A program made the translations under genes and the position numbers. Shown here piece by piece: positions 1,541 to 64,000 of a DNA stretch of 64,000 nucleotides. The stretch is taken from NCBI RefSeq assembly GCF_025526975.1, contig NW_026515673.1, positions 186,001 through 250,000 of the forward strand, given 5' to 3'. Numbering within the stretch: position 1 is the first letter of the stretch; each line of letters opens with the position of its first letter. Under the pieces are notes generated by a model. It saw nothing but the letters and a program-made list of their open reading frames with translations, did not search any database and was not told the origin of the DNA. Origin of the DNA: Fimicolochytrium jonesii (Eukaryota).

Positions 1541-1779
1541 CGTGGTGATGAGTCTACGACGTATGTAGATTTGTGACGGAACCGATAGAGATAGCTCTGT
1601 GTACTTTGTAATAATCCGGCTTGGCAGCGTGCTGGAGCTTCAGCGACATAACCCAACCCTGTTCAAGGAAAACCTCCTGGGGAAGTGTCGTCCTGACGTA
1701 TGCCGTTGGGACGACACTTCTGAAGGGTGTTTTCGGAGCAGGACGATAGATAACCCTGACCATGTCGAGTGTTTGGCGT

Positions 1780-3695
1780 TCCTGATCCTCTACGTCGACG
1801 ATCTGATACTTATGAGCAACAAGAGACTCGATCTTGACCACTTCAAAGCCAAGGAACTTCAGAAGGCATGGTTGGAAATGGACGGACAAATGGTCGGAAT
1901 CAGGTCGTGTGAAGCCTGTCTCGATGAGAGTGCTGTGGATTTCGATGTTCCATTCCCTGGGGCCTTGTTTAAGACCATAGGGGGTCTTCTTAAGTTTAAG
2001 CACGAGATGCTCTTCTCCTGGCTTGATGTAGCCTGGTGGCTGCTTCATATAGATCTCCTCACTTAGTGTTGGGCTCAGGAATGCGGTGGATATGTCCATT
2101 TGGTTCATTTCAAGGTCTTGAGCTGCTTGCCATGAGAGCAGTAGCCGAATGGTGTCGAACTTGGCCACTGGTGCGAATGTTTCGTTGTAGTCAACTCCCT
2201 CTTCTTGCAAGAAGCCTTGGGCGACTAGTCTGGCCTTGTAGCGTTCGATACTGTCATCAGCATTCGTCTTGATCTTGTAAATCCACTTGCAGCCGACAAG
2301 GTTGCGATCTTTGGGTGCTGCACAGAGCTCCCAGGTGCAGTTCTTGACGAGGGATGCGTATTCAGCATCCATAGCTTCCTTCCACTTGGCTGAGTCGTTC
2401 GGGTTTAGAGCTTGCTTGAGGGTTTTGGGCTCTGTGTGCAGTACTTCGATAGCCAGGGCATAGGCAAGGTTGCTTTGGCGTACTCGAGAGCTCTGGGAGC
2501 GTGTGATGCGTCCGTAATGCACCAAATCGTCTTCTTCCTGGTCTTCATGGTTGTCTAGGTTCTCTGGGGCCTCTGCCCATTGATCAGTGTCAGGTTGTGG
2601 GTTGGGAGATGCATCAGGGAGCTCAGAATTCCCCTCTGCAGTGCGCGGGCGTAATTCAGTGTTGTCTGTGGGCTTGGGTGCGTGCGAAACGATACTGTCA
2701 GGCTCAGGATCGAATTCAAAGCTTGCTAAGCTGTCATAGGAGCGATCTGATGTGTCTTCATGCGTATCCTCGTTGTCCAGGCTGTTGCAGAACTTGTTTT
2801 CATTGAACTGGACATCTCTTGATTCGATAATGGCGCCCTGATCATCGGGTTCGAGTGACTGGAGCCTCCAGACTTTGCTGGAAGAGATATAACCGAGAAA
2901 GAGGCACTTCTTGGCTTTGTTGTCCAGCTTTCCTCGGTTTTTCTTGAGAACCATAGCATAGGCTATACATCCAAACACTCTGAGATGAAGGAGGATGGGC
3001 TTGCAACCGAAGAAGGCTTTGTACGGCGTCTTGAAGTTGTCTAGTGCAGCCGTAGGGCAACGATTTCAAATGTGGACAGCTGCAAGCAGAACTTCTCCCC
3101 AGTATTCGTGTCCGAGACCAGCCTGGGTGAGTAGGCAGCGTGCCATTTTGACTAGAGTTTGATTCATACGTTCCGCTACCCGTTCTGCTCTGGGGTGTCG
3201 GTAGCAGCGCGCTGGTGTTGGATTCCAGCCTTTCTGAGTGCGAGGGTAAATTGGATGGATTCGTATTTGCCTCCTTTGTCCGATCTGAGGACTTTGATTG
3301 ATTTCCCAGTCTGTTTTTCCATAAGAGCCTTGTACAGGCATCAAAGGTATCGCTTTTCTTGCGTAGGAGCTTGACCCAGACGATTCTGGACTTGTCATCA
3401 ATCCATGATGCGAAGTAGGTACATCCCCCAAAAGTAGATGTCCTCATGGGGCCACAGAGGTCAGTGTGGACGAGTGCCAGGACTTCTGTGGCTTGGGTAG
3501 CTTGTTTCTTTGGGAAGGGAGCTCTGGACTGCTTGGAGAGCATGCAGACTTCGCAGATGTGGCCATCAGGATGTTCGGTGACTCTGATGTCACGTTGGTA
3601 GCCATTGGTGAGCTTCTGGACGTCTTGGGCATTCAGATGACCGAGTCGCTGATGCCAGATATGAAAGGGTGTGCAACAAAGTGCTCCTGCTGAGT
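1780..3695 (-). mobile_element. Ty1/copia family A pol remnant (GAG-pre-integrase, integrase, RT); frameshifted, truncated
   Basis: VHTDLCGP, AERMNQTL, KLDNKAKKCLFLGY, SRDVQFNE, WKEAMDAEY, RYKARLVAQGF, QMDISTAFL, YGLKQGPREW motifs in integrase-then-RT order. Confidence 0.93.
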
Positions 3696-3707
3696 AGGGA
3701 TAGCTGC

Positions 3708-3883
3708 AGGGCTCATAACCTGTTATTATGCCAGCTTGCCAAACAAAACGCTTACCCGGTCATGTACTGTACGGGTAGGTGCACCCCAACACCCCCTCTG
3801 CAGCTAGGCAGTGTAGTACATTTTTGACCGGATTTTTTATTGTTTGGCTAGGCAATATTAGGCAGAAGTGGTTTCGAAAAACA
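3708..3883 (-). mobile_element. Short (163 bp) LTR of another copia family (3721-3883) with its PBS
   Basis: TGTT...AACA inverted termini; GGTTATGAGCCCT follows immediately on the minus strand (3708-3720). Confidence 0.65.
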
Positions 3884-3929
3884 GTTACCCAAGCTGAGAT
3901 TCGAACCGCCACCATCAGGGCTCATAACC

Positions 3930-4549
3930 TATTGAAACCTTAGCTGATATAGGTGTATCTGAGAGGTCACTAAGACTGGTTTGCCGATAACTGAGGGATG
4001 TAGCTGCGCAAAGGGCAGTGTTGTGATGTAGAAGACAGTACTGTGGCTAGAGTAGTGCGATAGAAAGCTGCGTATTGAAGAGGTTGAAGTGAAGAGAGGA
4101 GATGGGCAACAGGTCTGTCTTTTATAGGAATCTGGGGCTTCTTTCTTGAGGATTTAGCTATGTGCTGGGGCGTCCAAAGCACTCTCTGAGACCCCCTCAG
4201 AACGCCCAAGGCGTCTCTGAGTGCCGCAATTAAGGTTGGTAAGGTTTGTAAGGTTTTGCCAAGTCTGTGTAGCCTCATAGGTACCTGCTGATGCCCCATG
4301 GGCGTCCGCCAAGTCCGCGGAAGGTGCTACAGGCTACCACAAGCGCAATTGAGCCCAATCTAGCTACTACAACCCGACCACAGCTCCATACGGGCACTAC
4401 AGACCGCTATGAGCTCTAAGAACATCATGAAAGCGCAGTGCTGATGCCTGGATGTCTGGGAAACGGTCCAGACATCTTCAGAGCCTCCCAACACGCGTCC
4501 TAAGTCTTGCAGAGCCTTCTAAGTGCCGCATCTTGATGCTATCTCAATA
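3930..4549 (-). repeat. Copia-A LTR (620 bp), TATTGA...TCAATA termini, PBS at 3917-3929
   Basis: 6-bp terminal inverted repeat; GGTTATGAGCCCT directly downstream on the minus strand. Confidence 0.85.
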
Positions 4550-5489
4550 CAACACTGGTACACGTGCATTCAAGCCCACAGACAAAACGGAATCATGCTC
4601 GCACGCTGCAGAGGGATCTTTTGAGCTTTCTTATGCGTCCGCCAACCCACAACCTGACACTGATCAGTGGGCAGAAGCCTCGGAGGATCTAGGCAACCAG
4701 GAAGAGCCTGAAGACGACGAATTGGTGCAGTACGGACGCATCACACGTTCTCAGAGCACGCAAATTCATCAAAGCAACCTTGCCTATGCTGTTGCAACCA
4801 AAGTACTACACACAGAGCCCAAAAAGTCCAAGCAGGCGCTAAACTCAAGCGATGCAGCAAAGTGGAAGGAAGCATTGGACGCTGAATACGAATATCTGCT
4901 CAAGAAAGGCACCTGGGACCTCTGCCCAACACCCAAAGATTGCAACCTTGTTGCCTGCAAGTGGGTCTGCAAGATCAAGATGAATGCTGATGGCAGTATC
5001 GAACGTTACAGTGCCAGACACTGGTCGCCCAAGGCTTCTTGCAAGAAGAGGGAGTTGACTACAACGAAACATTCGCACCAGTGGCCAAGTTCGACACCAT
5101 TCGGCTACTGCTCTCATGGCAAGCAGCTCAAGACCTTGAAATGAACCAAATGGACATATCCACCGCATTCCTGAGCCCAACACTCAGTGAGGAGATCTAT
5201 ATGAAGCAGCCACCGGGAGAAGAGCATCTCGTGCTCAAACTCAAGAAGACACTCTATTGTCTTAAACAAGCCCCAGGGAATGGAATATCGAAATCCACGG
5301 CACTCTCGTTGAGAAAGGCTTTACACGTCTTGATTCAGACCATTGCGTCTATATCAGATTCTTTGAGGGTGGGCTGCTCATCCTGATCCTCTATGTGGAC
5401 GATCTTAAACTTATGAGCAACAAGAGACTCGATCTTGAAAACTTCAAGGCCCAGGAACTTCAGAAGGCGTACGAGATGCGTGACCTTGG
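4550..5489 (+). pseudogene. Copia-A RT fragment inverted relative to gag/integrase (copies 8909-9848, 13268-14207)
   Basis: WKEALDAEY, GVDYNETFAPVA, MDISTAFL, LYVDD motifs with frameshifts; ends at EMRDLG fused to an LTR. Confidence 0.9.
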
Positions 5490-5930
5490 TGTAGTAGCTA
5501 GATTGGGTTTTATTGAGCTTGTGGAAGCCTGTAGCATCTGACGCGGGCTCCGCGGACTTGGCAGACGTCCATGGGGGCATCAGCAGGCTACACAGACTTG
5601 GCAAAACCTTATAAACCTTACCAACCTTAACTGCGGCACTCAGCGACGCCTTGGGCGTTTTGAGGGGATCTCAGAGGGTGCTTTGGACACCCCAGCACCT
5701 AGCCAAATCCCCAAGAAAGAAGCCCCAGATTCCTATAAAAGGCAGACCTGTTGCCCATCCCGTCCTTTTACTTTATCCTCTTCAATACACAGCTTTCTAT
5801 CGCACTACTCTAGTCACAGTACTGTCTTCTACATCACAACACTGCCCTTTGGGCAGCTACGTCCCTCAGTCATCGGCGAACCAATCTTCATGACCTCTCA
5901 GATACACCTATATCAGCTAAGGTTTCAATA
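5490..5930 (+). repeat. 5'-truncated copia-A LTR in inverted orientation (copies 9849-10289, 14208-14648)
   Basis: Reverse complement of 3930-4371; ends in GGTTTCAATA. Confidence 0.9.
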
Positions 5931-8288
5931 TGTTGTCAGGATCTGGATCGAATTTATAGCTCGCTAATCTGTCATAGGAGCGAGCTGACATGTCTTCATG
6001 CATATCATCATCTTCCAGGCTGTTGTAGACCTTGTTCCCATTGAACTGAACATCTCAGGATTTGATGATGGTGCCTTGATCATCAGGTTCAAGTGAGTGA
6101 AGCCTCCACGCTCTGCTGAAGGGGGTGCATCTGAGAAAGATGCACTTCTTGGCTTTGTTGTCCAGCTTTCCTCAGTTTCTCTTGAGGACCATAGCATAAG
6201 GTATGCATCCACGCCGTCTGAGATGAAGGTCGGTGGGCTTGCGACCGAAGAATACTTTGTACGGTGTCTTGAAGTTGTCAAAGGCAGCCATAGGGCATTG
6301 ATTTCCAATGTGCACGGCTGCAAGCAGCGCTTCTCCCCAGTATTCATGTCCAAGGCCAGCCTGGGTGAGTAGGCATTGTGCCATGTCGAATAGAGTTCGA
6401 TTCACACTTTCCGCTCCTCCGTTCTGCTGTGGGGTGTTGGTAGCAGCGCGCTGGTCTTGGATTCCAGCTCTCCTGAGCGCAAGGGCCAATTGGGTCGATT
6501 CCTTTCTCAGACCTGAGGTCTTTAATTGTGTTCCCCGTCTGCCTGTCCATAAGAGCCTTGTGCTCTCCCCGTGGGTCAAAGGCGTCGCTTTTCTTGTTGA
6601 GGAGCTTGACCCAGACAATTCTGGACTTGTCATCAATGCATGACCCAAAATAGGTACAGCTTGTTTCTTTGGAAAGGGAGCTCTGGACTGCTGGGAGAGC
6701 ATGCAGACTTACAGATGTGACCATCAGGGTGTCCGGTGACTCGGATGTTGCATTGATAGCCGTTGGTGAGCTCCTGAATGTCTTGAGCATTCAGATGACC
6801 GAGTCTCTGATGCGAGATATGAAAGGGTGTGCTACAAGGTGCTCCTGCTGAGTAGGCGTGTTCAGGGATAGCCTGGGCCTTCATGGTATACAGACCGTTC
6901 TCCTTGAGAGCTCTGAAGGCGAGAGCACCGTCCCTGGTCTTGATTGTGCACTCTGCACTCGAGAACTCAACTTGTGCTCTGGTCTCAGTCAGCTGGGCTA
7001 CTGAGATGAGGTTCTTTTCCAGTTTGGGAACTGACCAAATGTTTCAAAGGGTGCCAGTGTGCTCCTTGTGTGTTCTGATTGAGATGGAGCCTGTTCCGAT
7101 GGCTAGGACTGACTGGTTGTCAGCTAGCTGGACCTGGATCTCAGCTTCCAGCATCTTGTGTCATGCAGCCATTCCTTGACATGTGTCATGTGCAAGGAGG
7201 CTCCTAAATTGTTAATCCAGCATTCTGGGCTGATATCTGTGCGTTTAGCAGCGGCCATGAAGAGGAACCCAGTTCCTTGGGTGGCCTGCTGTGACTCGAC
7301 TTGATTCGCATTGTTGGCTTGAGCTAGCTCTCGTTTGAGCTTCTTGCACTCGTTCTTCCAATGCTCTTCAATGCCACAGTGATGGCACTTTCCCTTCTTC
7401 CTGGCCAACCTGGCTAAACCCCCAGCCTCCTGCTGGTGTCCCCCATCCCTGATGAAGGCGTTTCCAGGCGATCTGACTGGTTTCGAGTTCTCCTTGCGCC
7501 TAGCTTCTTCATTCAGAAGTCTGGCCATCAAGAACTCCATGTCTAAGTGGTCCGCCCTGCTTTCGAGGCTCATGATGACTTGTTTGTAGCTGTTTGGCAA
7601 GCTGTATATCAAGGTAGTCATGATATCGTCTTCGGGTACTGGTGCGCCGATAGCCTTCAGCTGTTGTGCGAGCTGTCTGACTTTGTTGATGTGGTTTGTG
7701 ATCGAGTCTGACTCGTTCATAGTAATGGTAAAAAGCTTTTGACATAGGAAGAGCTTGCTGGTGAGCCCTTTTCGTTCGTGCACCTCAGCTAGCTTAGACC
7801 AGGCTTCCCAAGCCGTGTGAGCTGTATGCACGTGCATAAGCTGGGTGTCGTTCAGACTGACGCAGATGTATGCCAAAGCCCTCTCAGCCCCCTTTCCCTT
7901 CGATGGGTTTGCTGTAGCCATGTCTCCTTCGCCTTCAACATCACCATCATCCTAAACTTCCATAGATGGTAGTTATCCCCTGTGAACTTGTCCACCATAA
8001 GTTTCGAAGTCTCTGCGTCTCCAGCCATCGTGTGTTCGAGCTAAGTTTGTCTGTTTCGAGTGTGTGGACACGTTTCGGATAATAGTGTATTGTTGGACAG
8101 GTTTTGGGTGTCAAGTAGTGCATATCTCGTTGAGTTGAGCACTTGAGCGCGTTTTTGGTCGAAAATTGGTGATTTTGGAAGGATATATGGAGGATAGGGC
8201 ATACGTAGCAACTGTAGGGGGTTGGGAACGTCTTGAATAGGATTTGCGAAGATGGTTTTAGTGATGATAAAGCTGAGGGCTCATAACC
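5931..8288 (-). mobile_element. Copia-A PBS, leader, gag, protease, integrase, degenerate (copies 10290-12647, 14649-17006)
   Basis: Copia-type gag (TAWEAWSKL...SLPNSY) with knuckle CHHCGIEEHWKNEC, degenerate protease WINNLGASLHMT, HQRLGH, PQQNGGAE; PBS at 8276-8288. Confidence 0.92.
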
Positions 8289-8908
8289 TATTGAAACCTT
8301 AGCTGATATAGGTGTATCTGAGAGGTCACTAAGACTGGTTCGCCGATAACTGAGGGATGTAGCTGCCCGAAGGGCAGTGTTGTGATGTAGAAGACAGTAC
8401 TGTGGCTAGAGTGGTGCGATAGAAAGCTGTGTATTGAAGAGGTTGAAGTGAAGAGACGGGATGGGCAACAGGTCTGCCTTTTATAGGAATCTGGGGCTTC
8501 TTTCTTGGGGATTTAGCTAGGTGCTGGGGTGTCCAAAGCACCCTCTGAGATCCCCTCAGAACGCCCAAGGCGTCGCTGAGTGCCGCAGTTAAGGTTGGTA
8601 AGGTTTGTAAGGTTTTGCCAAGTCTGTGTAGCCTCATAGGTACCTGCTGATGCCCCATGGGCGTCCGCCAAGTCCGCGGAAGGTGCTACAGGCTACCACA
8701 AGCGCAATTGAGCCCAATCTAGCTACTACAACCCGACCACAGCTCCATACGGGCACTACAGACCGCTATGAGCTCTAAGAACATCATGAAAGCGCAGTGC
8801 TGATGCCTGGATGTCTGGGAAACGGTCCAGACATCTTCAGAGCCTCCCAACACGCGTCCTAAGTCTTGCAGAGCCTTCTAAGTGCCGCATCTTGATGCTA
8901 TCTCAATA
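8289..8908 (-). repeat. Copia-A LTR, second copy
   Basis: +4359 copy of 3930-4549; same termini and PBS. Confidence 0.9.
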
Positions 8909-11900
8909 CAACACTGGTACACGTGCATTCAAGCCCACAGACAAAACGGAATCATGCTCGCACGCTGCAGAGGGATCTTTTGAGCTTTCTTATGCGTCCG
9001 CCAACCCACAACCTGACACTGATCAGTGGGCAGAAGCCTCGGAGGATCTAGGCAACCAGGAAGAGCCTGAAGACGACGAATTGGTGCAGTACGGACGCAT
9101 CACACGTTCTCAGAGCACGCAAATTCATCAAAGCAACCTTGCCTATGCTGTTGCAACCAAAGTACTACACACAGAGCCCAAAAAGTCCAAGCAGGCGCTA
9201 AACTCAAGCGATGCAGCAAAGTGGAAGGAAGCATTGGACGCTGAATACGAATATCTGCTCAAGAAAGGCACCTGGGACCTCTGCCCAACACCCAAAGATT
9301 GCAACCTTGTTGCCTGCAAGTGGGTCTGCAAGATCAAGATGAATGCTGATGGCAGTATCGAACGTTACAGTGCCAGACACTGGTCGCCCAAGGCTTCTTG
9401 CAAGAAGAGGGAGTTGACTACAACGAAACATTCGCACCAGTGGCCAAGTTCGACACCATTCGGCTACTGCTCTCATGGCAAGCAGCTCAAGACCTTGAAA
9501 TGAACCAAATGGACATATCCACCGCATTCCTGAGCCCAACACTCAGTGAGGAGATCTATATGAAGCAGCCACCGGGAGAAGAGCATCTCGTGCTCAAACT
9601 CAAGAAGACACTCTATTGTCTTAAACAAGCCCCAGGGAATGGAATATCGAAATCCACGGCACTCTCGTTGAGAAAGGCTTTACACGTCTTGATTCAGACC
9701 ATTGCGTCTATATCAGATTCTTTGAGGGTGGGCTGCTCATCCTGATCCTCTATGTGGACGATCTTAAACTTATGAGCAACAAGAGACTCGATCTTGAAAA
9801 CTTCAAGGCCCAGGAACTTCAGAAGGCGTACGAGATGCGTGACCTTGGTGTAGTAGCTAGATTGGGTTTTATTGAGCTTGTGGAAGCCTGTAGCATCTGA
9901 CGCGGGCTCCGCGGACTTGGCAGACGTCCATGGGGGCATCAGCAGGCTACACAGACTTGGCAAAACCTTATAAACCTTACCAACCTTAACTGCGGCACTC
10001 AGCGACGCCTTGGGCGTTTTGAGGGGATCTCAGAGGGTGCTTTGGACACCCCAGCACCTAGCCAAATCCCCAAGAAAGAAGCCCCAGATTCCTATAAAAG
10101 GCAGACCTGTTGCCCATCCCGTCCTTTTACTTTATCCTCTTCAATACACAGCTTTCTATCGCACTACTCTAGTCACAGTACTGTCTTCTACATCACAACA
10201 CTGCCCTTTGGGCAGCTACGTCCCTCAGTCATCGGCGAACCAATCTTCATGACCTCTCAGATACACCTATATCAGCTAAGGTTTCAATATGTTGTCAGGA
10301 TCTGGATCGAATTTATAGCTCGCTAATCTGTCATAGGAGCGAGCTGACATGTCTTCATGCATATCATCATCTTCCAGGCTGTTGTAGACCTTGTTCCCAT
10401 TGAACTGAACATCTCAGGATTTGATGATGGTGCCTTGATCATCAGGTTCAAGTGAGTGAAGCCTCCACGCTCTGCTGAAGGGGGTGCATCTGAGAAAGAT
10501 GCACTTCTTGGCTTTGTTGTCCAGCTTTCCTCAGTTTCTCTTGAGGACCATAGCATAAGGTATGCATCCACGCCGTCTGAGATGAAGGTCGGTGGGCTTG
10601 CGACCGAAGAATACTTTGTACGGTGTCTTGAAGTTGTCAAAGGCAGCCATAGGGCATTGATTTCCAATGTGCACGGCTGCAAGCAGCGCTTCTCCCCAGT
10701 ATTCATGTCCAAGGCCAGCCTGGGTGAGTAGGCATTGTGCCATGTCGAATAGAGTTCGATTCACACTTTCCGCTCCTCCGTTCTGCTGTGGGGTGTTGGT
10801 AGCAGCGCGCTGGTCTTGGATTCCAGCTCTCCTGAGCGCAAGGGCCAATTGGGTCGATTCCTTTCTCAGACCTGAGGTCTTTAATTGTGTTCCCCGTCTG
10901 CCTGTCCATAAGAGCCTTGTGCTCTCCCCGTGGGTCAAAGGCGTCGCTTTTCTTGTTGAGGAGCTTGACCCAGACAATTCTGGACTTGTCATCAATGCAT
11001 GACCCAAAATAGGTACAGCTTGTTTCTTTGGAAAGGGAGCTCTGGACTGCTGGGAGAGCATGCAGACTTACAGATGTGACCATCAGGGTGTCCGGTGACT
11101 CGGATGTTGCATTGATAGCCGTTGGTGAGCTCCTGAATGTCTTGAGCATTCAGATGACCGAGTCTCTGATGCGAGATATGAAAGGGTGTGCTACAAGGTG
11201 CTCCTGCTGAGTAGGCGTGTTCAGGGATAGCCTGGGCCTTCATGGTATACAGACCGTTCTCCTTGAGAGCTCTGAAGGCGAGAGCACCGTCCCTGGTCTT
11301 GATTGTGCACTCTGCACTCGAGAACTCAACTTGTGCTCTGGTCTCAGTCAGCTGGGCTACTGAGATGAGGTTCTTTTCCAGTTTGGGAACTGACCAAATG
11401 TTTCAAAGGGTGCCAGTGTGCTCCTTGTGTGTTCTGATTGAGATGGAGCCTGTTCCGATGGCTAGGACTGACTGGTTGTCAGCTAGCTGGACCTGGATCT
11501 CAGCTTCCAGCATCTTGTGTCATGCAGCCATTCCTTGACATGTGTCATGTGCAAGGAGGCTCCTAAATTGTTAATCCAGCATTCTGGGCTGATATCTGTG
11601 CGTTTAGCAGCGGCCATGAAGAGGAACCCAGTTCCTTGGGTGGCCTGCTGTGACTCGACTTGATTCGCATTGTTGGCTTGAGCTAGCTCTCGTTTGAGCT
11701 TCTTGCACTCGTTCTTCCAATGCTCTTCAATGCCACAGTGATGGCACTTTCCCTTCTTCCTGGCCAACCTGGCTAAACCCCCAGCCTCCTGCTGGTGTCC
11801 CCCATCCCTGATGAAGGCGTTTCCAGGCGATCTGACTGGTTTCGAGTTCTCCTTGCGCCTAGCTTCTTCATTCAGAAGTCTGGCCATCAAGAACTCCATG

Positions 11901-12647
11901 TCTAAGTGGTCCGCCCTGCTTTCGAGGCTCATGATGACTTGTTTGTAGCTGTTTGGCAAGCTGTATATCAAGGTAGTCATGATATCGTCTTCGGGTACTG
12001 GTGCGCCGATAGCCTTCAGCTGTTGTGCGAGCTGTCTGACTTTGTTGATGTGGTTTGTGATCGAGTCTGACTCGTTCATAGTAATGGTAAAAAGCTTTTG
12101 ACATAGGAAGAGCTTGCTGGTGAGCCCTTTTCGTTCGTGCACCTCAGCTAGCTTAGACCAGGCTTCCCAAGCCGTGTGAGCTGTATGCACGTGCATAAGC
12201 TGGGTGTCGTTCAGACTGACGCAGATGTATGCCAAAGCCCTCTCAGCCCCCTTTCCCTTCGATGGGTTTGCTGTAGCCATGTCTCCTTCGCCTTCAACAT
12301 CACCATCATCCTAAACTTCCATAGATGGTAGTTATCCCCTGTGAACTTGTCCACCATAAGTTTCGAAGTCTCTGCGTCTCCAGCCATCGTGTGTTCGAGC
12401 TAAGTTTGTCTGTTTCGAGTGTGTGGACACGTTTCGGATAATAGTGTATTGTTGGACAGGTTTTGGGTGTCAAGTAGTGCATATCTCGTTGAGTTGAGCA
12501 CTTGAGCGCGTTTTTGGTCGAAAATTGGTGATTTTGGAAGGATATATGGAGGATAGGGCATACGTAGCAACTGTAGGGGGTTGGGAACGTCTTGAATAGG
12601 ATTTGCGAAGATGGTTTTAGTGATGATAAAGCTGAGGGCTCATAACC

Positions 12648-13267
12648 TATTGAAACCTTAGCTGATATAGGTGTATCTGAGAGGTCACTAAGACTGGTTC
12701 GCCGATAACTGAGGGATGTAGCTGCCCGAAGGGCAGTGTTGTGATGTAGAAGACAGTACTGTGGCTAGAGTGGTGCGATAGAAAGCTGTGTATTGAAGAG
12801 GTTGAAGTGAAGAGACGGGATGGGCAACAGGTCTGCCTTTTATAGGAATCTGGGGCTTCTTTCTTGGGGATTTAGCTAGGTGCTGGGGTGTCCAAAGCAC
12901 CCTCTGAGATCCCCTCAGAACGCCCAAGGCGTCGCTGAGTGCCGCAGTTAAGGTTGGTAAGGTTTGTAAGGTTTTGCCAAGTCTGTGTAGCCTCATAGGT
13001 ACCTGCTGATGCCCCATGGGCGTCCGCCAAGTCCGCGGAAGGTGCTACAGGCTACCACAAGCGCAATTGAGCCCAATCTAGCTACTACAACCCGACCACA
13101 GCTCCATACGGGCACTACAGACCGCTATGAGCTCTAAGAACATCATGAAAGCGCAGTGCTGATGCCTGGATGTCTGGGAAACGGTCCAGACATCTTCAGA
13201 GCCTCCCAACACGCGTCCTAAGTCTTGCAGAGCCTTCTAAGTGCCGCATCTTGATGCTATCTCAATA
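12648..13267 (-). repeat. Copia-A LTR, third copy
   Basis: +4359 copy of 8289-8908. Confidence 0.9.
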
Positions 13268-16200
13268 CAACACTGGTACACGTGCATTCAAGCCCACAGA
13301 CAAAACGGAATCATGCTCGCACGCTGCAGAGGGATCTTTTGAGCTTTCTTATGCGTCCGCCAACCCACAACCTGACACTGATCAGTGGGCAGAAGCCTCG
13401 GAGGATCTAGGCAACCAGGAAGAGCCTGAAGACGACGAATTGGTGCAGTACGGACGCATCACACGTTCTCAGAGCACGCAAATTCATCAAAGCAACCTTG
13501 CCTATGCTGTTGCAACCAAAGTACTACACACAGAGCCCAAAAAGTCCAAGCAGGCGCTAAACTCAAGCGATGCAGCAAAGTGGAAGGAAGCATTGGACGC
13601 TGAATACGAATATCTGCTCAAGAAAGGCACCTGGGACCTCTGCCCAACACCCAAAGATTGCAACCTTGTTGCCTGCAAGTGGGTCTGCAAGATCAAGATG
13701 AATGCTGATGGCAGTATCGAACGTTACAGTGCCAGACACTGGTCGCCCAAGGCTTCTTGCAAGAAGAGGGAGTTGACTACAACGAAACATTCGCACCAGT
13801 GGCCAAGTTCGACACCATTCGGCTACTGCTCTCATGGCAAGCAGCTCAAGACCTTGAAATGAACCAAATGGACATATCCACCGCATTCCTGAGCCCAACA
13901 CTCAGTGAGGAGATCTATATGAAGCAGCCACCGGGAGAAGAGCATCTCGTGCTCAAACTCAAGAAGACACTCTATTGTCTTAAACAAGCCCCAGGGAATG
14001 GAATATCGAAATCCACGGCACTCTCGTTGAGAAAGGCTTTACACGTCTTGATTCAGACCATTGCGTCTATATCAGATTCTTTGAGGGTGGGCTGCTCATC
14101 CTGATCCTCTATGTGGACGATCTTAAACTTATGAGCAACAAGAGACTCGATCTTGAAAACTTCAAGGCCCAGGAACTTCAGAAGGCGTACGAGATGCGTG
14201 ACCTTGGTGTAGTAGCTAGATTGGGTTTTATTGAGCTTGTGGAAGCCTGTAGCATCTGACGCGGGCTCCGCGGACTTGGCAGACGTCCATGGGGGCATCA
14301 GCAGGCTACACAGACTTGGCAAAACCTTATAAACCTTACCAACCTTAACTGCGGCACTCAGCGACGCCTTGGGCGTTTTGAGGGGATCTCAGAGGGTGCT
14401 TTGGACACCCCAGCACCTAGCCAAATCCCCAAGAAAGAAGCCCCAGATTCCTATAAAAGGCAGACCTGTTGCCCATCCCGTCCTTTTACTTTATCCTCTT
14501 CAATACACAGCTTTCTATCGCACTACTCTAGTCACAGTACTGTCTTCTACATCACAACACTGCCCTTTGGGCAGCTACGTCCCTCAGTCATCGGCGAACC
14601 AATCTTCATGACCTCTCAGATACACCTATATCAGCTAAGGTTTCAATATGTTGTCAGGATCTGGATCGAATTTATAGCTCGCTAATCTGTCATAGGAGCG
14701 AGCTGACATGTCTTCATGCATATCATCATCTTCCAGGCTGTTGTAGACCTTGTTCCCATTGAACTGAACATCTCAGGATTTGATGATGGTGCCTTGATCA
14801 TCAGGTTCAAGTGAGTGAAGCCTCCACGCTCTGCTGAAGGGGGTGCATCTGAGAAAGATGCACTTCTTGGCTTTGTTGTCCAGCTTTCCTCAGTTTCTCT
14901 TGAGGACCATAGCATAAGGTATGCATCCACGCCGTCTGAGATGAAGGTCGGTGGGCTTGCGACCGAAGAATACTTTGTACGGTGTCTTGAAGTTGTCAAA
15001 GGCAGCCATAGGGCATTGATTTCCAATGTGCACGGCTGCAAGCAGCGCTTCTCCCCAGTATTCATGTCCAAGGCCAGCCTGGGTGAGTAGGCATTGTGCC
15101 ATGTCGAATAGAGTTCGATTCACACTTTCCGCTCCTCCGTTCTGCTGTGGGGTGTTGGTAGCAGCGCGCTGGTCTTGGATTCCAGCTCTCCTGAGCGCAA
15201 GGGCCAATTGGGTCGATTCCTTTCTCAGACCTGAGGTCTTTAATTGTGTTCCCCGTCTGCCTGTCCATAAGAGCCTTGTGCTCTCCCCGTGGGTCAAAGG
15301 CGTCGCTTTTCTTGTTGAGGAGCTTGACCCAGACAATTCTGGACTTGTCATCAATGCATGACCCAAAATAGGTACAGCTTGTTTCTTTGGAAAGGGAGCT
15401 CTGGACTGCTGGGAGAGCATGCAGACTTACAGATGTGACCATCAGGGTGTCCGGTGACTCGGATGTTGCATTGATAGCCGTTGGTGAGCTCCTGAATGTC
15501 TTGAGCATTCAGATGACCGAGTCTCTGATGCGAGATATGAAAGGGTGTGCTACAAGGTGCTCCTGCTGAGTAGGCGTGTTCAGGGATAGCCTGGGCCTTC
15601 ATGGTATACAGACCGTTCTCCTTGAGAGCTCTGAAGGCGAGAGCACCGTCCCTGGTCTTGATTGTGCACTCTGCACTCGAGAACTCAACTTGTGCTCTGG
15701 TCTCAGTCAGCTGGGCTACTGAGATGAGGTTCTTTTCCAGTTTGGGAACTGACCAAATGTTTCAAAGGGTGCCAGTGTGCTCCTTGTGTGTTCTGATTGA
15801 GATGGAGCCTGTTCCGATGGCTAGGACTGACTGGTTGTCAGCTAGCTGGACCTGGATCTCAGCTTCCAGCATCTTGTGTCATGCAGCCATTCCTTGACAT
15901 GTGTCATGTGCAAGGAGGCTCCTAAATTGTTAATCCAGCATTCTGGGCTGATATCTGTGCGTTTAGCAGCGGCCATGAAGAGGAACCCAGTTCCTTGGGT
16001 GGCCTGCTGTGACTCGACTTGATTCGCATTGTTGGCTTGAGCTAGCTCTCGTTTGAGCTTCTTGCACTCGTTCTTCCAATGCTCTTCAATGCCACAGTGA
16101 TGGCACTTTCCCTTCTTCCTGGCCAACCTGGCTAAACCCCCAGCCTCCTGCTGGTGTCCCCCATCCCTGATGAAGGCGTTTCCAGGCGATCTGACTGGTT

Positions 16201-17006
16201 TCGAGTTCTCCTTGCGCCTAGCTTCTTCATTCAGAAGTCTGGCCATCAAGAACTCCATGTCTAAGTGGTCCGCCGTGCTTTCGAGGCTCATGATGACTTG
16301 TTTGTAGCTGTTTGGCAAGCTGTATATCAAGGTAGTCATGATATCGTCTTCGGGTACTGGTGCGCCGATAGCCTTCAGCTGTTGTGCGAGCTGTCTGACT
16401 TTGTTGATGTGGTTTGTGATCGAGTCTGACTCGTTCATAGTAATGGTAAAAAGCTTTTGACATAGGAAGAGCTTGCTGGTGAGCCCTTTTCGTTCGTGCA
16501 CCTCAGCTAGCTTAGACCAGGCTTCCCAAGCCGTGTGAGCTGTATGCACGTGCATAAGCTGGGTGTCGTTCAGACTGACGCAGATGTATGCCAAAGCCCT
16601 CTCAGCCCCCTTTCCCTTCGATGGGTTTGCTGTAGCCATGTCTCCTTCGCCTTCAACATCACCATCATCCTAAACTTCCATAGATGGTAGTTATCCCCTG
16701 TGAACTTGTCCACCATAAGTTTCGAAGTCTCTGCGTCTCCAGCCATCGTGTGTTCGAGCTAAGTTTGTCTGTTTCGAGTGTGTGGACACGTTTCGGATAA
16801 TAGTGTATTGTTGGACAGGTTTTGGGTGTCAAGTAGTGCATATCTCGTTGAGTTGAGCACTTGAGCGCGTTTTTGGTCGAAAATTGGTGATTTTGGAAGG
16901 ATATATGGAGGATAGGGCATACGTAGCAACTGTAGGGGGTTGGGAACGTCTTGAATAGGATTTGCGAAGATGGTTTTAGTGATGATAAAGCTGAGGGCTC
17001 ATAACC

Positions 17007-17462
17007 TATTGAAACCTTAGCTGATATAGGTGTATCTGAGAGGTCACTAAGACTGGTTCGCCGATAACTGAGGGATGTAGCTGCCCGAAGGGCAGTGTTG
17101 TGATGTAGAAGACAGTACTGTGGCTAGAGTGGTGCGATAGAAAGCTGTGTATTGAAGAGGTTGAAGTGAAGCGACGGGATGGGCAACAGGTCTGCCTTTT
17201 ATAGGAATCTGGGGCTTCTTTCTTGGGGATTTAGCTAGGTGCTGGGGTGTCCAAAGCACCCTCTGAGATCCCCTCAGAACGCCCAAGGCGTCGCTGAGTG
17301 CCGCAGTTAAGGTTGGTAAGGTTTGTAAGGTTTTGCCAAGTCTGTGTAGCCTCACAGGTACCTGCTGATGTCCCATGGGGGTCTGCCAAATCCGCGGAAG
17401 GTGCTACAGACTGCCACAAGCTCAAGCAAGCCCAAGTGCCGCGTCTTGATGCTATCTCAATA
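17007..17462 (-). repeat. Copia-A LTR, fourth copy, with ~165-bp internal deletion
   Basis: Same termini; GCCCAA joins directly to GTGCCGC near 17435. Confidence 0.85.
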
Positions 17463-18585
17463 TTTGGTCCATTCACATTCTGAGACCCGTGAATACTCCT
17501 CCTACGGATATCTTACAAGAAAAAGTTCATAAACCTCCTTCATCATCCCACTTCGCTCTCAAGGCATAGAGATGATCTCTAAGCAATTCAATGAGGCTTG
17601 GCAACGCAACAAGTTTGAGAAAGACATGGTCTGTAGCCTCGCACTTAACAAAATACCAGATGCTCCTCAACAGCTCAAAGGAAGTCCTGGACATCTAAAG
17701 GATATCCTAGACAAATATGTCAATATGCTTTTCAAGGAACCGGAAGGTCTACCTCCTTATTGTGGAGAAGACAATTTCAAGATCGAACTCACTGAAGGTG
17801 CTGAAGCTGTTTGGCAACGTCTTCGTCACATGAACAAGGAAGAACTCGCTGAGCTCAAGAAGCAAATCACCATTGTGCTTGAAAAAGAATGGATACAACA
17901 CTCCTCAAGTCCCTGGGGAGCTAATGTCATCTTTGCCAAGAAGAAAGATGGCGGACTACGCATCTTTTGGGACTACCGAGGTCTCAACTCTGTTACCAAG
18001 AAAGATTGTACTCCTTTAAGCAACATTCAAGGGAGGAGGGATCGATTTCCAGGCTGCAAATGGTTTACGCTTATTGACATTTGAGAAGCATACCATTGTC
18101 TCCTTATACGAAAACAAGATTGAGAAAAAACAGCAATACGAACTCACTTCGGACACCTCAAATATTTGGTTATGCCGTTTGGGCTCATCAATGCACCTGC
18201 TGCATTTCAACACCTTATGAATAAGATCTTTCACAAAGATTACAAATTCCTTGCTACCTATCTGGACGACATCCTTATTCTCTCCCTTGCTGAACACCAC
18301 GAACACGTTGATCGCACCCTGAAGAACCTTAAAGAACACGCCCTTTTCATCAAACCTTCAAAGTGTGTATGGGCCAAAGAAGAAATCAAATGGTGTGGAC
18401 ATATTTTCGGAAGACTTGGTGTTCGCATGGCGCCTCAAAGATTCAAGCTATCAAGCTGGGCTACTCCAAGATCAACAAAAGGAGTTCAAAGCTTCCTTGG
18501 TCTCACGATCTACTTTCTCTACTTTGTTCAAGGTTATTTGGACATCACTACCCCTATCAAGTATTCAATCTTTGAAAGTCAAAAA
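17463..18585 (+). mobile_element. Ty3/gypsy family C RT fragment, degenerate
   Basis: SSSPWGANVIFAKKKDGGLRIFWDYRGLN, VMPFGLINAPAAFQ, YLDDIL; stops and frameshifts. Confidence 0.9.
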
Positions 18586-18725
18586 AGTCTTGCAGAGCCT
18601 TCCAAGTGCCGCATCTTGATGTTATCTCAATGCTCCCTCCCACTTGAAGGCTCCGCTCCGAGTGCATCCCAGCTTGCAGACGTGTGAGGTCTGGCATGGA
18701 TAGGGGTTTAGTAACCATACCAACC
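18586..18725 (-). mobile_element. Copia-A 3' end fragment: RNase H tail, PPT and start of 3' LTR
   Basis: Minus strand reads VTKPL, then AAGTGGGAGGGAG, then CATTGAGATAACATCAAG matching the LTR start. Confidence 0.7.
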
Positions 18726-19600
18726 CTACAACAAGAGCTAGCCCAAGCCAACATTGCGAATCAAGTCGAGTCACAGCAGGCCAGCCAAGGAACCGGGTTC
18801 CCCTTCATGAATATCAGCCCAGAATGCTGGATTATCAAGTTAGGAGCCTCCTCGCACATGACACACTTCAAGGAATGGCTGCACGACACAAGACGCTGGA
18901 AGCTGAGATCCAGGTCTAGCTAGCTGACAACCGGTCAGTTCTAGACATCGGAACGGGCTTCATTATCATCAGAACACACGGGAAGCATGCTGGCACCATT
19001 TGAAACGTTTGGTTTGTTCCCAAATTCGAAAAGAACCTTATCGCAATAGCCCAGCTGACTGAGAATGGTGAACAAGTTGAGTTCTCAAGTGCAGAGTGCA
19101 CAATCAAGACACGAGATGGCGCTCTCACCTTCCGAACTCTCAAAGGGAACTGTCTCTACACCATGAAGGCTCAAGCGATCCCTGACCATGCCTACTCAGC
19201 AGGAGTACTTCGCAGCACTCCCTTTCACATCTGGCATCAGAGACTCGGTCATCTGACTGCTCAAGACGGTCAGAAGCTCACCAACGGCTATCAACGCAAC
19301 ATCCGAGTCACCGGACACCCTGATGGTCACATCTGCGAAGCCTGCACGCTCTCCAAGCACTCCAGAGCTCCCTTTGCAAAGAAACAAGCCACCCAAGCCA
19401 TAGAAGTACTGGCACTCGTCCACGCTGTCCTCTGTGGGCCCATGAGGACGTCCGACCTTTGGGGGCTGCACTCATTTCGCATCATTCATTGGTGATAAGG
19501 CCAGAATCATCTGGGTCAAGCTCCTATGCTGGGTCAAGCTCCTATGCAAGAAAAGCGATACCTTTGATGCCTGGGAGGAATACAAGGCACTTATGACGGT
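18726..19600 (+). mobile_element. Copia-A gag-end/protease/GAG-pre-integrase/integrase-start fragment
   Basis: ASSHMT, WHQRLGH, CEACTLSK, VHAVLCGP; diverged paralogue of 6600-7330. Confidence 0.9.
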
Positions 19601-19603
19601 GGC

Positions 19604-20525
19604 CTATATAAGATGCTGTGGGGGTGGCTGGCAGAAGCGAGGGTCTATCGAATGAGGGGCTATGGTCGGTTCTCGGGGAAAATAGGCTGCCGGTCTCAAT
19701 AGTACAAGAAGATTGCTCTTGTTAGAGCATCGTCTTGCCACCATAATATCCAGGTGCTTTGAATGGAGTCCTTGTTCTTGAAGGGGGTTGGGAGTATGAG
19801 TTTGGGTGCGAAAGATCGGGTCGGTAATATCCAACAAAGGTTGACTACAAAACAATACAACGGAGTTATTCAATACTACTCTCAGCTGTTCTTACTAGAT
19901 TCCTGATCAAGCAAGTCCTCTGCGACGTCAGCAAAGTACAAGCCACAAGACTTGGGGCCGTCTTGTCTAAGCTCTCAGTGTCTGTGAGCTTGCCTTGAAA
20001 AGTCCGAAAGGAACTTGAAAAAGTCGTCAGGAGTAGAGAAGTAGCTCTGTTGTGGGTTGGTGTGTTCTGCGTATCGTACAAAATTCAAGGCGAAACAGTC
20101 AGGCTTCTATACACATTTTTGTAGGCTACAGAATTTTGTCAAAGTCCAAACTCTCTACTATATGTCTCTAGAAGAATCAGCTACATCAAGGGATTCTCTT
20201 TTCCTGCAGCAGTCTACGTCGTTTTCGCCTTTTCCATTCGCAATTTCTACGCTGATACAGTCTTATCGCTAATCTTTTCTGTGGTTTTTCTTCAACGTTT
20301 GGCATATACGGCCACTGGAATTGGTTTTCTTGTTTCGCAGTTGATTTTTTCAGCGTTTCGGGCATTGTGAGAGCTTCCGGTTGGTTGAGAGTCACGTCTG
20401 GGGCGCTTTCATGTGTGAGATCTTTACCTACGCCTACATTTTTCTCATGTCAGTCGTATCCGAGGACAAAACATCGTTGTGAGGGCAGGTCTCGGTAAAG
20501 GCAGGTGTGTTAGGTTATTGTCAGA
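19604..20525 (-). repeat. Gypsy-B LTR fragment (partly duplicated at 25522-26325)
   Basis: Reverse-complement similarity to 47960-48912 (GCACCTGGATATTA, GTCCTCGG.TACGACTGACATG blocks). Confidence 0.8.
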
Positions 20526-20529
20526 GTGT

Positions 20530-21345
20530 CAGAAATGGGAGTATGTCAATTTATTTTTGAAGGTTTTGACAGTATTTGACGTTGTCCCAGGTCTTTGACA
20601 TTGCCCCAGTGCCGAAGCTGATTGCCCGACTGTAGCTCTGTCAATGGATACGCGATGTATGCATAACGATCGTCTTTCTGTATGGTAGGACGTGCAAAGT
20701 TTTGCACGGCCTCCAATTTTGAGGGTGCAATAGCCATTGTTCCTCTTCCAGGATATAGCCACAGAATTGAGCATCCATTTACGCTTGGACGGCTTAACAT
20801 AGAGTTTGTGCTCGGTGAGAACAGCCAAAACACTGTCCACATGAGCGATATGCTCCTCGGCAATCTCCGACAAGATTAAGATATCATCCAGGTAAGATAT
20901 GACATACATCATACATCTTCCCCAATATCTTATTGGGTAACCGTTGAAACGTTGCCAGTGCATTCGTTAATCCTATCGGCATAACCAAGTACTCAAAATG
21001 ATCAAACCGCGTCCAAAACGCTGTTTTGTCTATATCGCCCTTGCAAACCAAGAGGTGGTGATACGCATCTTTGATGTCCAACAAAGACTTGAACTTCCTT
21101 CCACATACCCGATCCTGCAGCTCTGCATGATTCGGTAACGGCGTACAATCCTTTATCATTGCTTTGTTCAGCCCACGATAGTCAACGCACATATGGAGAC
21201 TGCCATCGTTTGTCTTAGCAAGTAACACTGCGGCAACCCATGGGCTCTGCCAGTGCTGAACCCATCTGCGCTCAAGCATGAGAGTAACCTTCTCATTAAG
21301 CTCTTTGAGTTCAGCTTTGCTCATATGCCGTAAAGGATTAAAGTC
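20530..21345 (-). pseudogene. Gypsy-A RT fragment (copy 26330-27145)
   Basis: CVDYRGLNK, LDIKDAYH, VMPIGLTNA, YLDD; diverged paralogue of 31370-32180. Confidence 0.9.
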
Positions 21346-21349
21346 TAGT

Positions 21350-21872
21350 GTGTTGTTTACGAAGACCTCGGATGGTGTTTTGCTGACCAGAGGGGACGTT
21401 ATGGGAGTAACTGATCTCAGCTCCGGTGTTGGATAAACATACGGGATGGTGTAAGTTGTAGCGTGCTGAGGAGGTGCATGGGGGCCAGCGGCAGAGAAGT
21501 CACATATGGCGCACTAGCCGGTATAGGGCTAGCTGAGTAATTAGAGTGAGTGCTGTATACTGACGATTGGGTGAGCGGGTTTACTGAGTGGAACGTAGGT
21601 CCGCCTTGTTGAGGAGCTCGATCCTGATTCAAGAGGGAGGTAACCAAGCCTGGCAAATTGGCAATTAGGTCTTCTAGATGAAGAAACCTCTCTTCCTGCT
21701 TGATTGGAATCCATAGGAATGGGTTGATTTCGGTTTTGGGGGGTCCGGCGGTTTGGGCACATCCACATACAGGGTGATGGCATCCTTCAACTCTGCAATA
21801 GTCGGAGAAGACTCCTCCTTCCTCTTCCTTTTCATCCACAAATCCACCAGGCATTTCACGAAGACGGGTAGG
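21350..21872 (-). pseudogene. Copia-C-like gag fragment (copy 27150-27672)
   Basis: MPGGFVDEKEE...RAPQQGGPT..SVNPLTQS matches gag at 40130-40580. Confidence 0.8.
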
Positions 21873-22165
21873 TGTGATGTGGACTACCTTCCACACGGGT
21901 TGTTTAACTGATGTTCGTATACAATAACTACTTTGCTGTAAGGTATTGTAGACGGACTGGGTGTTCGTCGGCTCTGCTATGCGATATGTAGTAAAAGAAC
22001 TACTTGTTGTGCATAGGACCGCGCGACGAGCACTGTTAAAGTACCCGTGAGGTTGGAGTCCACTGGAGAACACTGTTTGGGACATGTCTCGCACACCTGG
22101 CAAGACATGTCTTGCTGACATGTCGTTCTCCAATAAGACCAGACACTCCACATTACACCCCCCCC
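21873..22165 (-). repeat. Gypsy-A 3' LTR (21873-22157, 285 bp) with G8 polypurine tract (copy 27673-27965)
   Basis: TGTAATGTG...CACATCACA termini preceded by GGGGGGGG on the minus strand. Confidence 0.88.
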
Positions 22166-22354
22166 AGATTCTACAACGCGAACCTGCCCAGCAAGCTCAA
22201 GCAGAGTAGAATATGAAGGTGTCCGGGATCGCACCCAGCGCAATCCTTAATGGTCCTTGTCGTCGTCGGTCCAAATAACCATGCAAAAAAGCTATGGCTT
22301 TTTGGCAGAAAGCCATGGCTTTTTCGCTGAAAGCCATGGTTCGCCAACTGGACG

Positions 22355-25300: not shown

Positions 25301-25521
25301 TAGCGTTCGCTATGGACATAGAAGCTGCAGTGAATGCGTCACCAGCTTATGTCCCCGCAGATGAGCGCAATCGCGCCGAACCAGAGCCAGAGGTTCAAAT
25401 TAGCGAAGCTACGGGACAGAAGGTTGATTTGGGCGTGCCATTGGATCACCTTCTTTATCCAATGTTAGAGAAGTACATGGATAGTTTGTTTGTTGAGCAC
25501 GCAGAGTTGCCGCCCGATCGA
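22355..25521 (+). mobile_element. Gypsy-A 5' part: LTR 22355-22736, PBS, gag, protease; truncated by the duplication junction
   Basis: TG...CA LTR, PBS TGGTAGCACC at 22737, gag LEGDARTWF, knuckle CFDCGEMGHRARDC, protease ILIDTGC. Confidence 0.9.
22432..22504 (+). repeat. 23-bp tandem repeat (CCTTTCGACCTGTCAGTGAAAGG) x ~3 inside the LTR (copy 28232-28304)
   Basis: Read directly; absent from the 285-bp LTR variants. Confidence 0.85.
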
Positions 25522-34698: not shown

Positions 34699-34945
34699 AC
34701 TTAGCAGTAGTCGGCGGAGGAAGCAGATGACTGAGCGAACTCTATGTAGTGTGCAATGCTGTACTGTGAAGTATGTATTGTCTTGTGTAGAAAAGTCTAA
34801 AGTGTAAAGAGGACGCGAGGTCTGAAGGGGAAGAAACGAGTGAAGTCCCGTACGCAGAAGCGTGGCAAAAGCGGGAGGGGAGTCACGTGAGGAAATAAAC
34901 TATGGGAACTCTAACCGGGGACTTGGGAGGATGATACCCCCAACA
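34699..34945 (-). repeat. Copia-C 3' LTR
   Basis: Direct repeat of 40935-41181 (roughly 19 mismatches by eye); adjacent PPT. Confidence 0.92.
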
Positions 34946-38900: not shown

Positions 38901-39335
38901 CAGCACTGGGAACCAATACAACATCGCAAAGAGCGAGAACGTTGCCGCCGGACGTAGGTTGGATAAGTACGGTACCCTTCTTTTGAGAGGTAATGGTAGT
39001 CGAATCCACGAGTCCAATAAGGCGTTGGTAGTCTTGAAGAGAAGATGGATCTAGATCCTCAATATAGGGGGTCATATGATCCGTACAACCGGAATCCACG
39101 TTCGCCTTGAAGAGGCGGACGTCGTGGTTGGCTGGTTGGACTTGAACGTGCATGGCATAAGCCATGGAGGCTGCAGCGGGTGCGTCCTGCTTGGTTTTCA
39201 TGTTCTTGTCCATGATATCCTTGACAGCTTTGTAAGTAATGCAGTTTTCCGACTTGTGGCCGTCCCTCTGGCAGTATTTGCACTGGGGAGGCTTCTTGGT
39301 TGCGTCAGAAGACGAGCTTGGGTAGAGGGAGTGCC
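35938..39335 (-). CDS. Copia-C pol: Zn knuckle, protease, integrase, chromodomain, RT, RNase H
   Basis: CKYCQRDGHKSENC in frame upstream of the 1091-aa ORF; VDSGCTDHMT; HQRLGHP; HSDLQGP, HTDSGGEY, QNGKAERLNR; EYLVKWVGF; ALYGLKQSP; YVDH (mutated YVDD); YTDASY, SSTEAEY, SKHIDVRYH. Confidence 0.93.
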
Positions 39336-40934: not shown

Positions 40935-41181
40935 ACTTAGCAGTAGTCGGCAGAGGAAGCAGATGACTGAGCAAACTCTATGTTGTGTGAGATGTAGTAC
41001 TGTGAAGAATGTATTGTCCTGTGTAGAAAAGTCTAAAGTGTAAAGAGGACGCGAGGTCCGAAGGGGAAGAAAAGAGTGAAGTCCCGTACGCGGAAGCGTG
41101 GCGTAAGCGGGAGGGGAGTCACGTGAGGAAATAAACTACGGGAAACCTAACCGGGGACTCGGGAGGATGATACCTCCAACA
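40935..41181 (-). repeat. Copia-C 5' LTR
   Basis: Followed by the PBS on the minus strand. Confidence 0.92.
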
Positions 41182-54952: not shown

Positions 54953-55171
54953 TATGGAAGGTAGGAAGGTAGGGAGGTAAGCAAGGGGGGCAAAGCGAAA
55001 TTCTGGCGGGGGCGTGAACAGAGCCTTGACAGCTTTTTTCCAGTTTTTGCTGTTTTGTGGTGTCACGCCGTCGGACTCGGATGAACGCGTCGAAATGTTG
55101 TCGAAACGTTGTCAGACGTCCTCGCATTTCAGCAACCCTCACACACATCAAGCGCGGAAACTGTCCACGCC

Positions 55172-63500: not shown

Positions 63501-64000
63501 ACCCTGCGCGACGCGGGCAAGGTTCCTGCCGCCGTTGATCTGTTACGCAAATCATCCAACTTGTTCGATCAGATTGACCTGCTTCATTACATCTATTCCT
63601 GCCATGGATTGGGGTATGACATCTCAGGACTAGGGACCGTCTCCACACTCCTTGAGGAAGTCTATCTCAAAGCGATGCATCTGCGACAATGGAGTATCGT
63701 GCGACAAGCTGCCGGACTTCTAAAGAAGATGGTCAACTCTCTGACGATCAATCTTTCTGACCTACTCATCCGTCAACGCCCGGTAACAATTGGATACGGA
63801 AGCGAGGAGATGTTCATCACATCGCCAATGTCGCCGGCGGCTTTAAAGGAGAGCATTTACAAACACTGTGCAAGCGATGTACGGGAGGCCCCTCTTGTAC
63901 AAGAAATCCTAACGTATCTGGGCTCCTTCATCCGTGGCACACCTGACATGTTCGAAGGTATCATGCGTGTACGGACCCACTTCTTCATCATCGCGATCCG
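60525..64000 (+). CDS. PHKB: Phosphorylase kinase regulatory subunit (alpha/beta family, GH15-like), 3'-partial
   Basis: [89 protein letters not shown]. Alpha versus beta assignment is uncertain. Confidence 0.88.

Follow-up and report, generated by a model that had tools for sequence, protein, structure and literature searches.

A stretch of 64,000 nucleotides from Fimicolochytrium jonesii (contig NW_026515673.1, positions 186,001 to 250,000; hereafter the window) carries a rearranged Ty1/copia retrotransposon in which two ends of a long terminal repeat (LTR) are joined to one internal site of pol, with a 5-bp duplication and an inversion. The rearranged unit of 4359 bp is present in three copies followed by a fourth LTR. 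Antisense nested insertion of a younger sister element followed by a later inversion is favoured here over a rescued autointegration circle, with a probability of about 0.5, and the tandem expansion would have come much later. Self-comparison of the window by BLAST placed the period at 3917-17435 and also returned three copies of an inverted LTR and two paralogues, R (1889-3701, minus strand) and Q (18730-19595, plus strand). Read on the minus strand, each unit consists of an LTR, the primer binding site (PBS), arm A (gag-protease-integrase), CAACA, the inverted LTR, inverted arm B (linker and reverse transcriptase, RT), inverted CAACA and the next LTR. The three copies had been described in an earlier reading of the letters alone (the original prediction), and they are confirmed in the assembly together with the fourth LTR.

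The joints and the element family

Arms A and B were each aligned separately and without gaps to paralogue R, using windows of 40, 60 and 80 nt. With all three sizes the last base of arm A fell on position 2693 and the first base of arm B on 2697, which is an exact overlap of 5 bp, and the next-best registers were much lower (66/80 versus 35/80 and 56/80 versus 34/80). Only four of the first ten bases after CAACA in arm B match R, and the register nonetheless holds. The junctions are LTR-TGTTG at 5931-5935 and LTR-CAACA at 4550-4554, with both LTR ends flush on the target. The match of the 5-mer alone has a chance of 1 in 1024, and two flush LTR ends with a 5-mer in exact register are far beyond chance. 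The alignment therefore bears out the proposal that two points of pol, contiguous on the paralogue near 2690, were joined with a 5-bp duplication and an inversion, and it indicates a joint of integrase type accompanied by inversion. Microhomology instead of integrase was rejected as the source of the joints because the LTR ends meet the target without any overlap. A simple single element bounded by LTR4 and LTR1 was also discarded, since LTR1 is followed by a PBS and is flush on the target. A central purine tract guiding the choice of target was considered as well, and the only runs of at least 10 purines lie more than 490 bp away. The CAACA target matches the terminal five bases of the LTR itself (CAATA) at 4/5 positions, probably by chance.

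The geometric features of an inversion circle are therefore present: both LTR termini flush at one internal site, the target duplicated in inverted orientation and the intervening segment inverted. The original prediction took this as the product expected when integrase attacks its own complementary DNA (cDNA). The joints do match autointegration on opposite strands, but an antisense nested insertion plus inversion gives the same joints, so they cannot separate the two routes, which differ in whether the LTR ends and the target came from one molecule. The geometry is that of an inversion circle and the origin from such a circle is only a candidate, with the data leaning against a same-molecule origin of ends and target.

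The assignment to Ty1/copia is based on the Pfam domains Retrotran_gag_2, gag_pre-integrs (which passes the cutoff in R and Q but not in the unit) and RVT_2, along with SH3_retrovirus in R, and tblastn of homologues orders the coding pieces as gag-protease-integrase-RT. The 620-bp LTR has short terminal inverted repeats (TATTGA/TCAATA) and is followed by the PBS. LTRs usually end in TG...CA, versus TA...TA in this family, and its PBS is common to a second copia family in the window whose LTRs start with TG. For RNase H and the polypurine tract (PPT) before the 3' LTR, no homologue match was obtained beyond ~5500 on the plus strand or below 1700, with 53 of the 121 queries running more than 200 aa past the YVDD motif. 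At 5489/5490 the end of RT, RNase H, the PPT and ~178 bp of LTR are lost; the inverted LTR is thus a 441-bp remnant fused directly to RT, a detail that was absent from the original prediction. This is a secondary loss, which lowers the case for an active element and not that for a copia-derived one. The array is copia-derived and non-autonomous and, having no intact polyprotein or PPT, it is predicted to be immobile. Of 2704 protein relatives found, the 120 listed (34-55% identical) were used solely to polarise changes. A protein-based scan gave 447 confirmed stretches, and among the best 80 the best segments were 30-51% identical, none of them usable as a family member; an exact 24-nt LTR pattern gave 0 stretches in metagenome contigs.

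Origin of the inversion

The favoured sequence of events would start with the antisense integration of R, with LTR1 and the inverted LTR as its LTRs, into a decayed older copy, X (LTR4, arm A and arm B), at the integrase-RT linker; here the joint is observed and its agent presumed. The RT regions would then have faced each other as inverted repeats, and a two-break or recombination event may have flipped the block formed by arm B, the target, LTR1 and R, removing the end of RT, RNase H and the PPT on both sides. The inversion is evident, and its route is presumed. Afterwards, conversion among the repeats could have turned LTR4 into a patchwork and transferred 161 bp between R and arm B, the tract being visible and conversion its supposed mechanism. 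Nested insertion of LTR elements into copies of their own family is generally known. As in the present case, it involves LTR ends flush on a 5-bp duplication, an older host and, behind one LTR, the PBS and pol of a younger element; what differs is that the reciprocal remainder and the outer target duplication are lost here, so that the inversion route is presumed. As for the inversion, Ty1 repeats are known to mediate such events (PMC3102749).

The coding sequences suggest different ages. Considering codons conserved in at least 60% of the homologues, 18/88 are changed in the unit and 4/88 in R (p = 0.004); at 70% conservation the counts are 15/73 versus 3/73, and at 80% they are 14/60 versus 1/60. 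This corresponds to a decay per site of ~8.9% (5.5-13.2) for the unit and ~2.0% (0.5-4.9) for R. Concerning the LTRs, the inverted one differs from LTR2 by 24/431 substitutions and from LTR1 by 35/431, plus two indels. The half-divergence of this pair, 2.8-4.1% (from 5.6-8.1% between inverted and direct LTRs), fits R and falls below the interval of the unit. An inserted element younger than its host and dated by its LTR pair is what nesting predicts, and these ages are those commonly seen when a young element sits within an older one. Because the LTR pair is younger than the pol arms and similar in age to the paralogue behind LTR1, nesting fits the age pattern better than a circle. It had been listed in the original prediction as the alternative, and it has gained ground on ages, with joints that are the same as those of autointegration.

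Moreover, LTR1 is followed by a PBS (3918-3929), as had been stated, and by the pol of R, oriented as the inserted element's own body. The "uninverted pol further on" of the original prediction is present, but it belongs to a different copy, 81-85% identical and devoid of gag-protease. Remnants of the same family are found in both orientations within 20 kb. Arm B ends at 5489, whereas R breaks at the B-equivalent position 5344 with a flipped piece over 5380-5470, that is, at near-homologous positions, as if one event had broken both opposed RT copies. An imperfect inverted repeat (hairpin) lies at 1668-1734, just left of the broken end of R.

The distribution of differences among LTRs points in the same direction. 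LTR1 and the inverted LTR are evenly diverged by block (14/166, 13/177 and 8/88, or 8.4, 7.3 and 9.1%; p = 0.87), while the three other pairs, LTR2-inverted, LTR4-inverted and LTR1-LTR4, are uneven (p = 0.013, 0.001 and 0.008, with the blocks defined post hoc). This pattern makes LTR1 and the inverted LTR look like sisters that have aged together, and LTR4 like a patchwork left by conversion. The first block border is ~30 bp behind the TATA box at 4126 in LTR1; a step at the RNA level suggested by this coincidence was set aside, since it was noticed post hoc and carries little weight.

Several observations weigh against nesting, beginning with the identical joints that autointegration would leave. 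The inverted LTR agrees with LTR4 at 13/15 informative sites as far as 4229 and with LTR1 at 5/8 beyond it, and before the mosaic and decay tests these counts had set the prior at 55:35 for the circle. The block borders were picked after seeing the data, and the 39 two-state sites in three blocks gave a permutation p of 0.047 with two free breakpoints. The even divergence between LTR1 and the inverted LTR is, taken alone, also compatible with a circle crossing over near the 3' end of the LTR. Under nesting LTR4 is expected to be as decayed as arm A, yet it is so only in the last 80 comparable bp (11/80), so that two conversions must be assumed. Regarding the ages, decay was estimated from homologues that had been aligned on R, with 2.3 replacement sites assumed per codon; the identical 161-bp tract was excluded, as were codons at which both copies lack the common residue. 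When A, R and Q were compared with all sites pooled, their numbers of private changes were similar (21, 24 and 22 of 304). In the protease, A (~7100, minus strand) and Q (~18890, plus strand) also have a frame switch in common, together with an altered active-site motif, so dead copies of the family were copied after inactivation, which weakens the age argument. The link between LTR1 and R is broken by a 195-bp segment and a second PBS, and LTR1 as the own LTR of R is putative. Downstream of the 161-bp tract, arm B is still X-like (2 polarised changes and two deletions versus 1), which argues against a crossover at the tract itself; the tract was rejected as the inversion point because arm B stays decayed there, although the numbers are small. 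Finally, RNase H, the 3' LTR and the outer target duplication of X are absent from the left flank (1-1790). The circle model also predicts a remainder, of R, in that flank, so its loss does not decide. TTTGG at 1772 was dismissed as the outer target duplication, since the motif occurs 3 times in 1-1900 and this copy does not adjoin the end of an LTR.

The main rival is possible, though less probable than nesting: RNA of the decayed X would have been reverse-transcribed with helper proteins, both cDNA ends would have attacked their own pol on opposite strands to form an inversion circle, and this circle would have entered the LTR/PBS of a resident R by a single crossover, with deletions, conversions and, much later, tandem expansion. 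A single step would then account for both joints, the inversion and the 5-bp duplication, with a geometry like that described in PMC7197481. In addition, the inverted LTR is, overall, most similar to the inner-LTR type (24/431), and the best single breakpoint of the informative sites coincides with the crossover window of LTR2, but the permutation p for a single free breakpoint is only 0.11. LTR2 against the inverted LTR is, moreover, uneven (13/166, 3/177 and 8/88; p = 0.013, post-hoc blocks), so LTR2 is no pristine LTR of a circle. The frame switch shared by A and Q indicates that dead templates were copied, so a decayed cDNA could have autointegrated; nevertheless, the template would have to be far more decayed than its LTRs, and the near-homologous breaks in B and R would be a coincidence. 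Recombination of cDNA with genomic relatives has been described in fission yeast (PMC5741268), while inversion circles are described as non-productive (PMC7197481, PMC2644782). Those of Ty1, Arabidopsis SISYPHUS/ATCOPIA52 and HIV-1 likewise have both LTR ends at one internal site with an inverted portion between them, according to the same two papers. However, they are extrachromosomal, fresh and non-productive, whereas the array here is chromosomal and decayed, with LTRs 5.6-8.1% apart; unlike them, it has lost the end of RT, RNase H and the PPT, and its ends and target may derive from different copies. Other complex routes to the inversion take the probability that is left.

Origin of the tandem units

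When the array is compared with itself one period (4359) further along, two of the 8,766 sites in 4230-12995 disagree, and both changes (16275 and 17172) occur in the last copy alone. The LTR divergence would lead one to expect ~244 differences per unit. The 161-bp run identical to R is present in all three units, and the probability of two or fewer differences in 189 bp at 5.6% is 0.0014. It follows that the monomer was probably at the locus first, and the likely order is inversion, then conversion with the neighbour R, then triplication. Judging by these differences, the trimer is far younger than the inversion and postdates the local gene-conversion tract, so it would not have arrived as a concatemer of circles.

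LTR2 and LTR3 are identical hybrids. They differ from LTR4 at 1/301 positions up to 4229 and from LTR1 at 0/80 in 4278-4357, switching from the LTR4 type to the LTR1 type within the 48-bp identical window 4230-4277. Inner LTRs that are recombinants of the two outer ones are the prediction of unequal exchange, and the last step of the favoured scenario would be a very recent out-of-register exchange between LTR1 and LTR4 in this window that produced a shared-LTR tandem; the hybrids are seen, the exchange is their probable cause. Hybrid inner LTRs were not retained as proof of circle integration, because unequal exchange yields the same pattern. Tandems with shared LTRs are commonly formed by LTR recombination (PMC5932611), and they present the same head-to-tail units, hybrid LTRs and near-identical copies, with the difference that the unit here is a rearranged dead element with an internal inversion and not an intact one.

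A trimer from the start is very improbable, whether one circle had been copied into a trimer or several had inserted when the inversion took place. The head-to-tail units with shared LTRs agree with it, and insertion of rolling-circle concatemers is a proposed route to tandem transposable elements (PMC5932611, PMC3648361). However, units as old as the founding event are predicted by this route, and the near-identity of the units against 5.6-8.1% in the LTR pair, together with internal deletions and the R-identical tract in all three units, speaks against it. The age gap has largely refuted it already, leaving only a late pop-out and re-insertion of an old monomer. The trimeric circle as one event, a literal reading of the title of the original prediction, does not stand for this reason. 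From the further proposal that a circle recombined into a resident 5' LTR and was then amplified, a monomer that was first and amplified later is upheld by the age gap and the conversion tract, and the circle origin is less favoured.

Regardless of the inversion route, the triplication could be partly or wholly an assembly artefact, with one or two real units, which is rather unlikely. Units 1 and 2 are identical from 4230 on, a cycle in the assembly graph through the 48-bp identical LTR window would also be expected to give hybrid LTRs, and another tandem duplicate that is almost perfect (5800 bp with 1 difference and a blunt junction) is found 2.3 kb away. On the other hand, the two substitutions private to the last copy argue for at least two real copies, unless they are polishing errors, and LTR-flanked units are known to expand by unequal exchange. 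That second duplicate (19722-31321) is an exact tandem of gypsy debris and may be either a real recent duplication or an assembly artefact.

Features of the window and significance

The retrotransposon nest, with copia and gypsy Pfam domains, extends from ~1.5 to 50 kb of the window, with host genes beyond. The features of the array and its flanks are listed in Table 1.

Table 1. Coordinates of the array and of related remnants in the window
Feature	Positions	Strand	Remarks
Other family remnants	18585..19595	+	Paralogue Q in plus sense (18730-19595); fragment of an LTR 5' end in minus sense (18585-18631)
Short flipped RT piece at the broken end of R	1779..1869	+	Equivalent to B 5380-5470
Paralogue R	1889..3720	-	Holds the second PBS (3709-3720), pre-integrase, integrase and the 5' part of RT; gag-protease deleted; decay lower than in the unit
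195-bp segment between two PBS copies	3721..3915	-	Miniature LTR element or SINE-like insert
PBS behind LTR1	3918..3929	-	Between LTR1 and the 195-bp segment
LTR1	3930..4549	-	620 bp, TA...TA ends (TATTGA/TCAATA); 5' end joined to the duplicated target
CAACA, 5-bp target copy opening inverted arm B	4550..4554	+	Also 8909-8913, 13268-13272
Arm B	4555..5489	+	Inverted integrase-RT linker and RT 5' part (RVT_2), decayed, truncated shortly past the YVDD motif
161-bp tract identical to paralogue R	5024..5184	+	Background ~80%; likely gene conversion; in all three units
Inverted LTR remnant, 3' 441 bp	5490..5930	+	3' end joined to the target; also 9849-10289, 14208-14648
CAACA, 5-bp target copy closing arm A	5931..5935	-	Also 10290-10294, 14649-14653
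Arm A	5936..8276	-	Leader, gag, protease, pre-integrase, integrase; with stops, frameshifts and deletions
Unit PBS	8277..8288	-	Also 12636-12647, 16995-17006
LTR2, hybrid	8289..8908	-	LTR4-type up to LTR1 position 4229, LTR1-type from 4278
Second copy of B, inverted LTR, A and PBS	8909..12647	.	From self-comparison
LTR3	12648..13267	-	Identical to LTR2
Third copy	13268..17006	.	One private difference, at 16275
LTR4	17007..17462	-	456 bp, 164-bp internal deletion; patchwork relative to LTR1 and the inverted LTR

The 195-bp segment is flanked by PBS copies that form an 18-bp repeat (17/18 alike, spacing 209). Its minus-strand end comprises a run of purines, a 71-bp TG...CA piece and the PBS, and imperfect inverted repeats occur inside it. 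ARAGORN found 0 genes in the window and Rfam gave 0 matches in 3600-4000. The segment could be either a miniature LTR element that entered at the shared PBS or an insert like a short interspersed element (SINE) with a long target duplication.

The second copia family (35941-39336, minus strand, LTRs at ~34699-34945 and 40935-41181) has an open frame of 1132 aa with a weak Chromo match (E = 2.6e-4, below the Pfam cutoff) between the SH3 and RT domains; a gypsy-type gag open reading frame (ORF; 39201-40613) is located between its 5' LTR and pol. Among LTR elements of fungi, chromodomains have been described for gypsy (PMC3248453). Among the host genes, the one at 54479-55111 (minus strand) shows a weak adenosine-deaminase N-terminal match, and the one at 61417-63998 (plus strand) is phosphorylase-kinase-like, of GH15; the best named relatives of its ORF 62667-63998 include the chytrids Blyttiomyces, Rhizophlyctis and Borealophlyctis, which makes a chytrid-type fungus the likely host.

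The array is a real, precisely reconstructable rearrangement that is explained by known processes. A bolder and more doubtful reading is that of a rescued "suicide" product: an inversion circle made from a dead template would have recombined into a resident sister LTR, become fixed in a fungal chromosome and now be expanding in tandem. Among the titles and beginnings of abstracts searched, a scope outside which most subscription papers lie, there was no report of a chromosomally fixed inversion circle, and passages of PMC11054761 contain nothing on the subject. If this reading were true, circles regarded as dead ends could re-enter the genome, and autointegration would leave a heritable and searchable fossil record that could seed satellites. 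If nesting is true, the array would be a clean and roughly datable case of a transposon nest scrambling itself by insertion, inversion, conversion and tandem expansion, and a warning that joints of the inversion-circle type in a chromosome are no proof of autointegration. Assemblies are easily searched for the signature of two LTR ends that lie flush on an inverted 5-bp duplication, and a comparison of LTR age with target age over many cases would separate the two routes.

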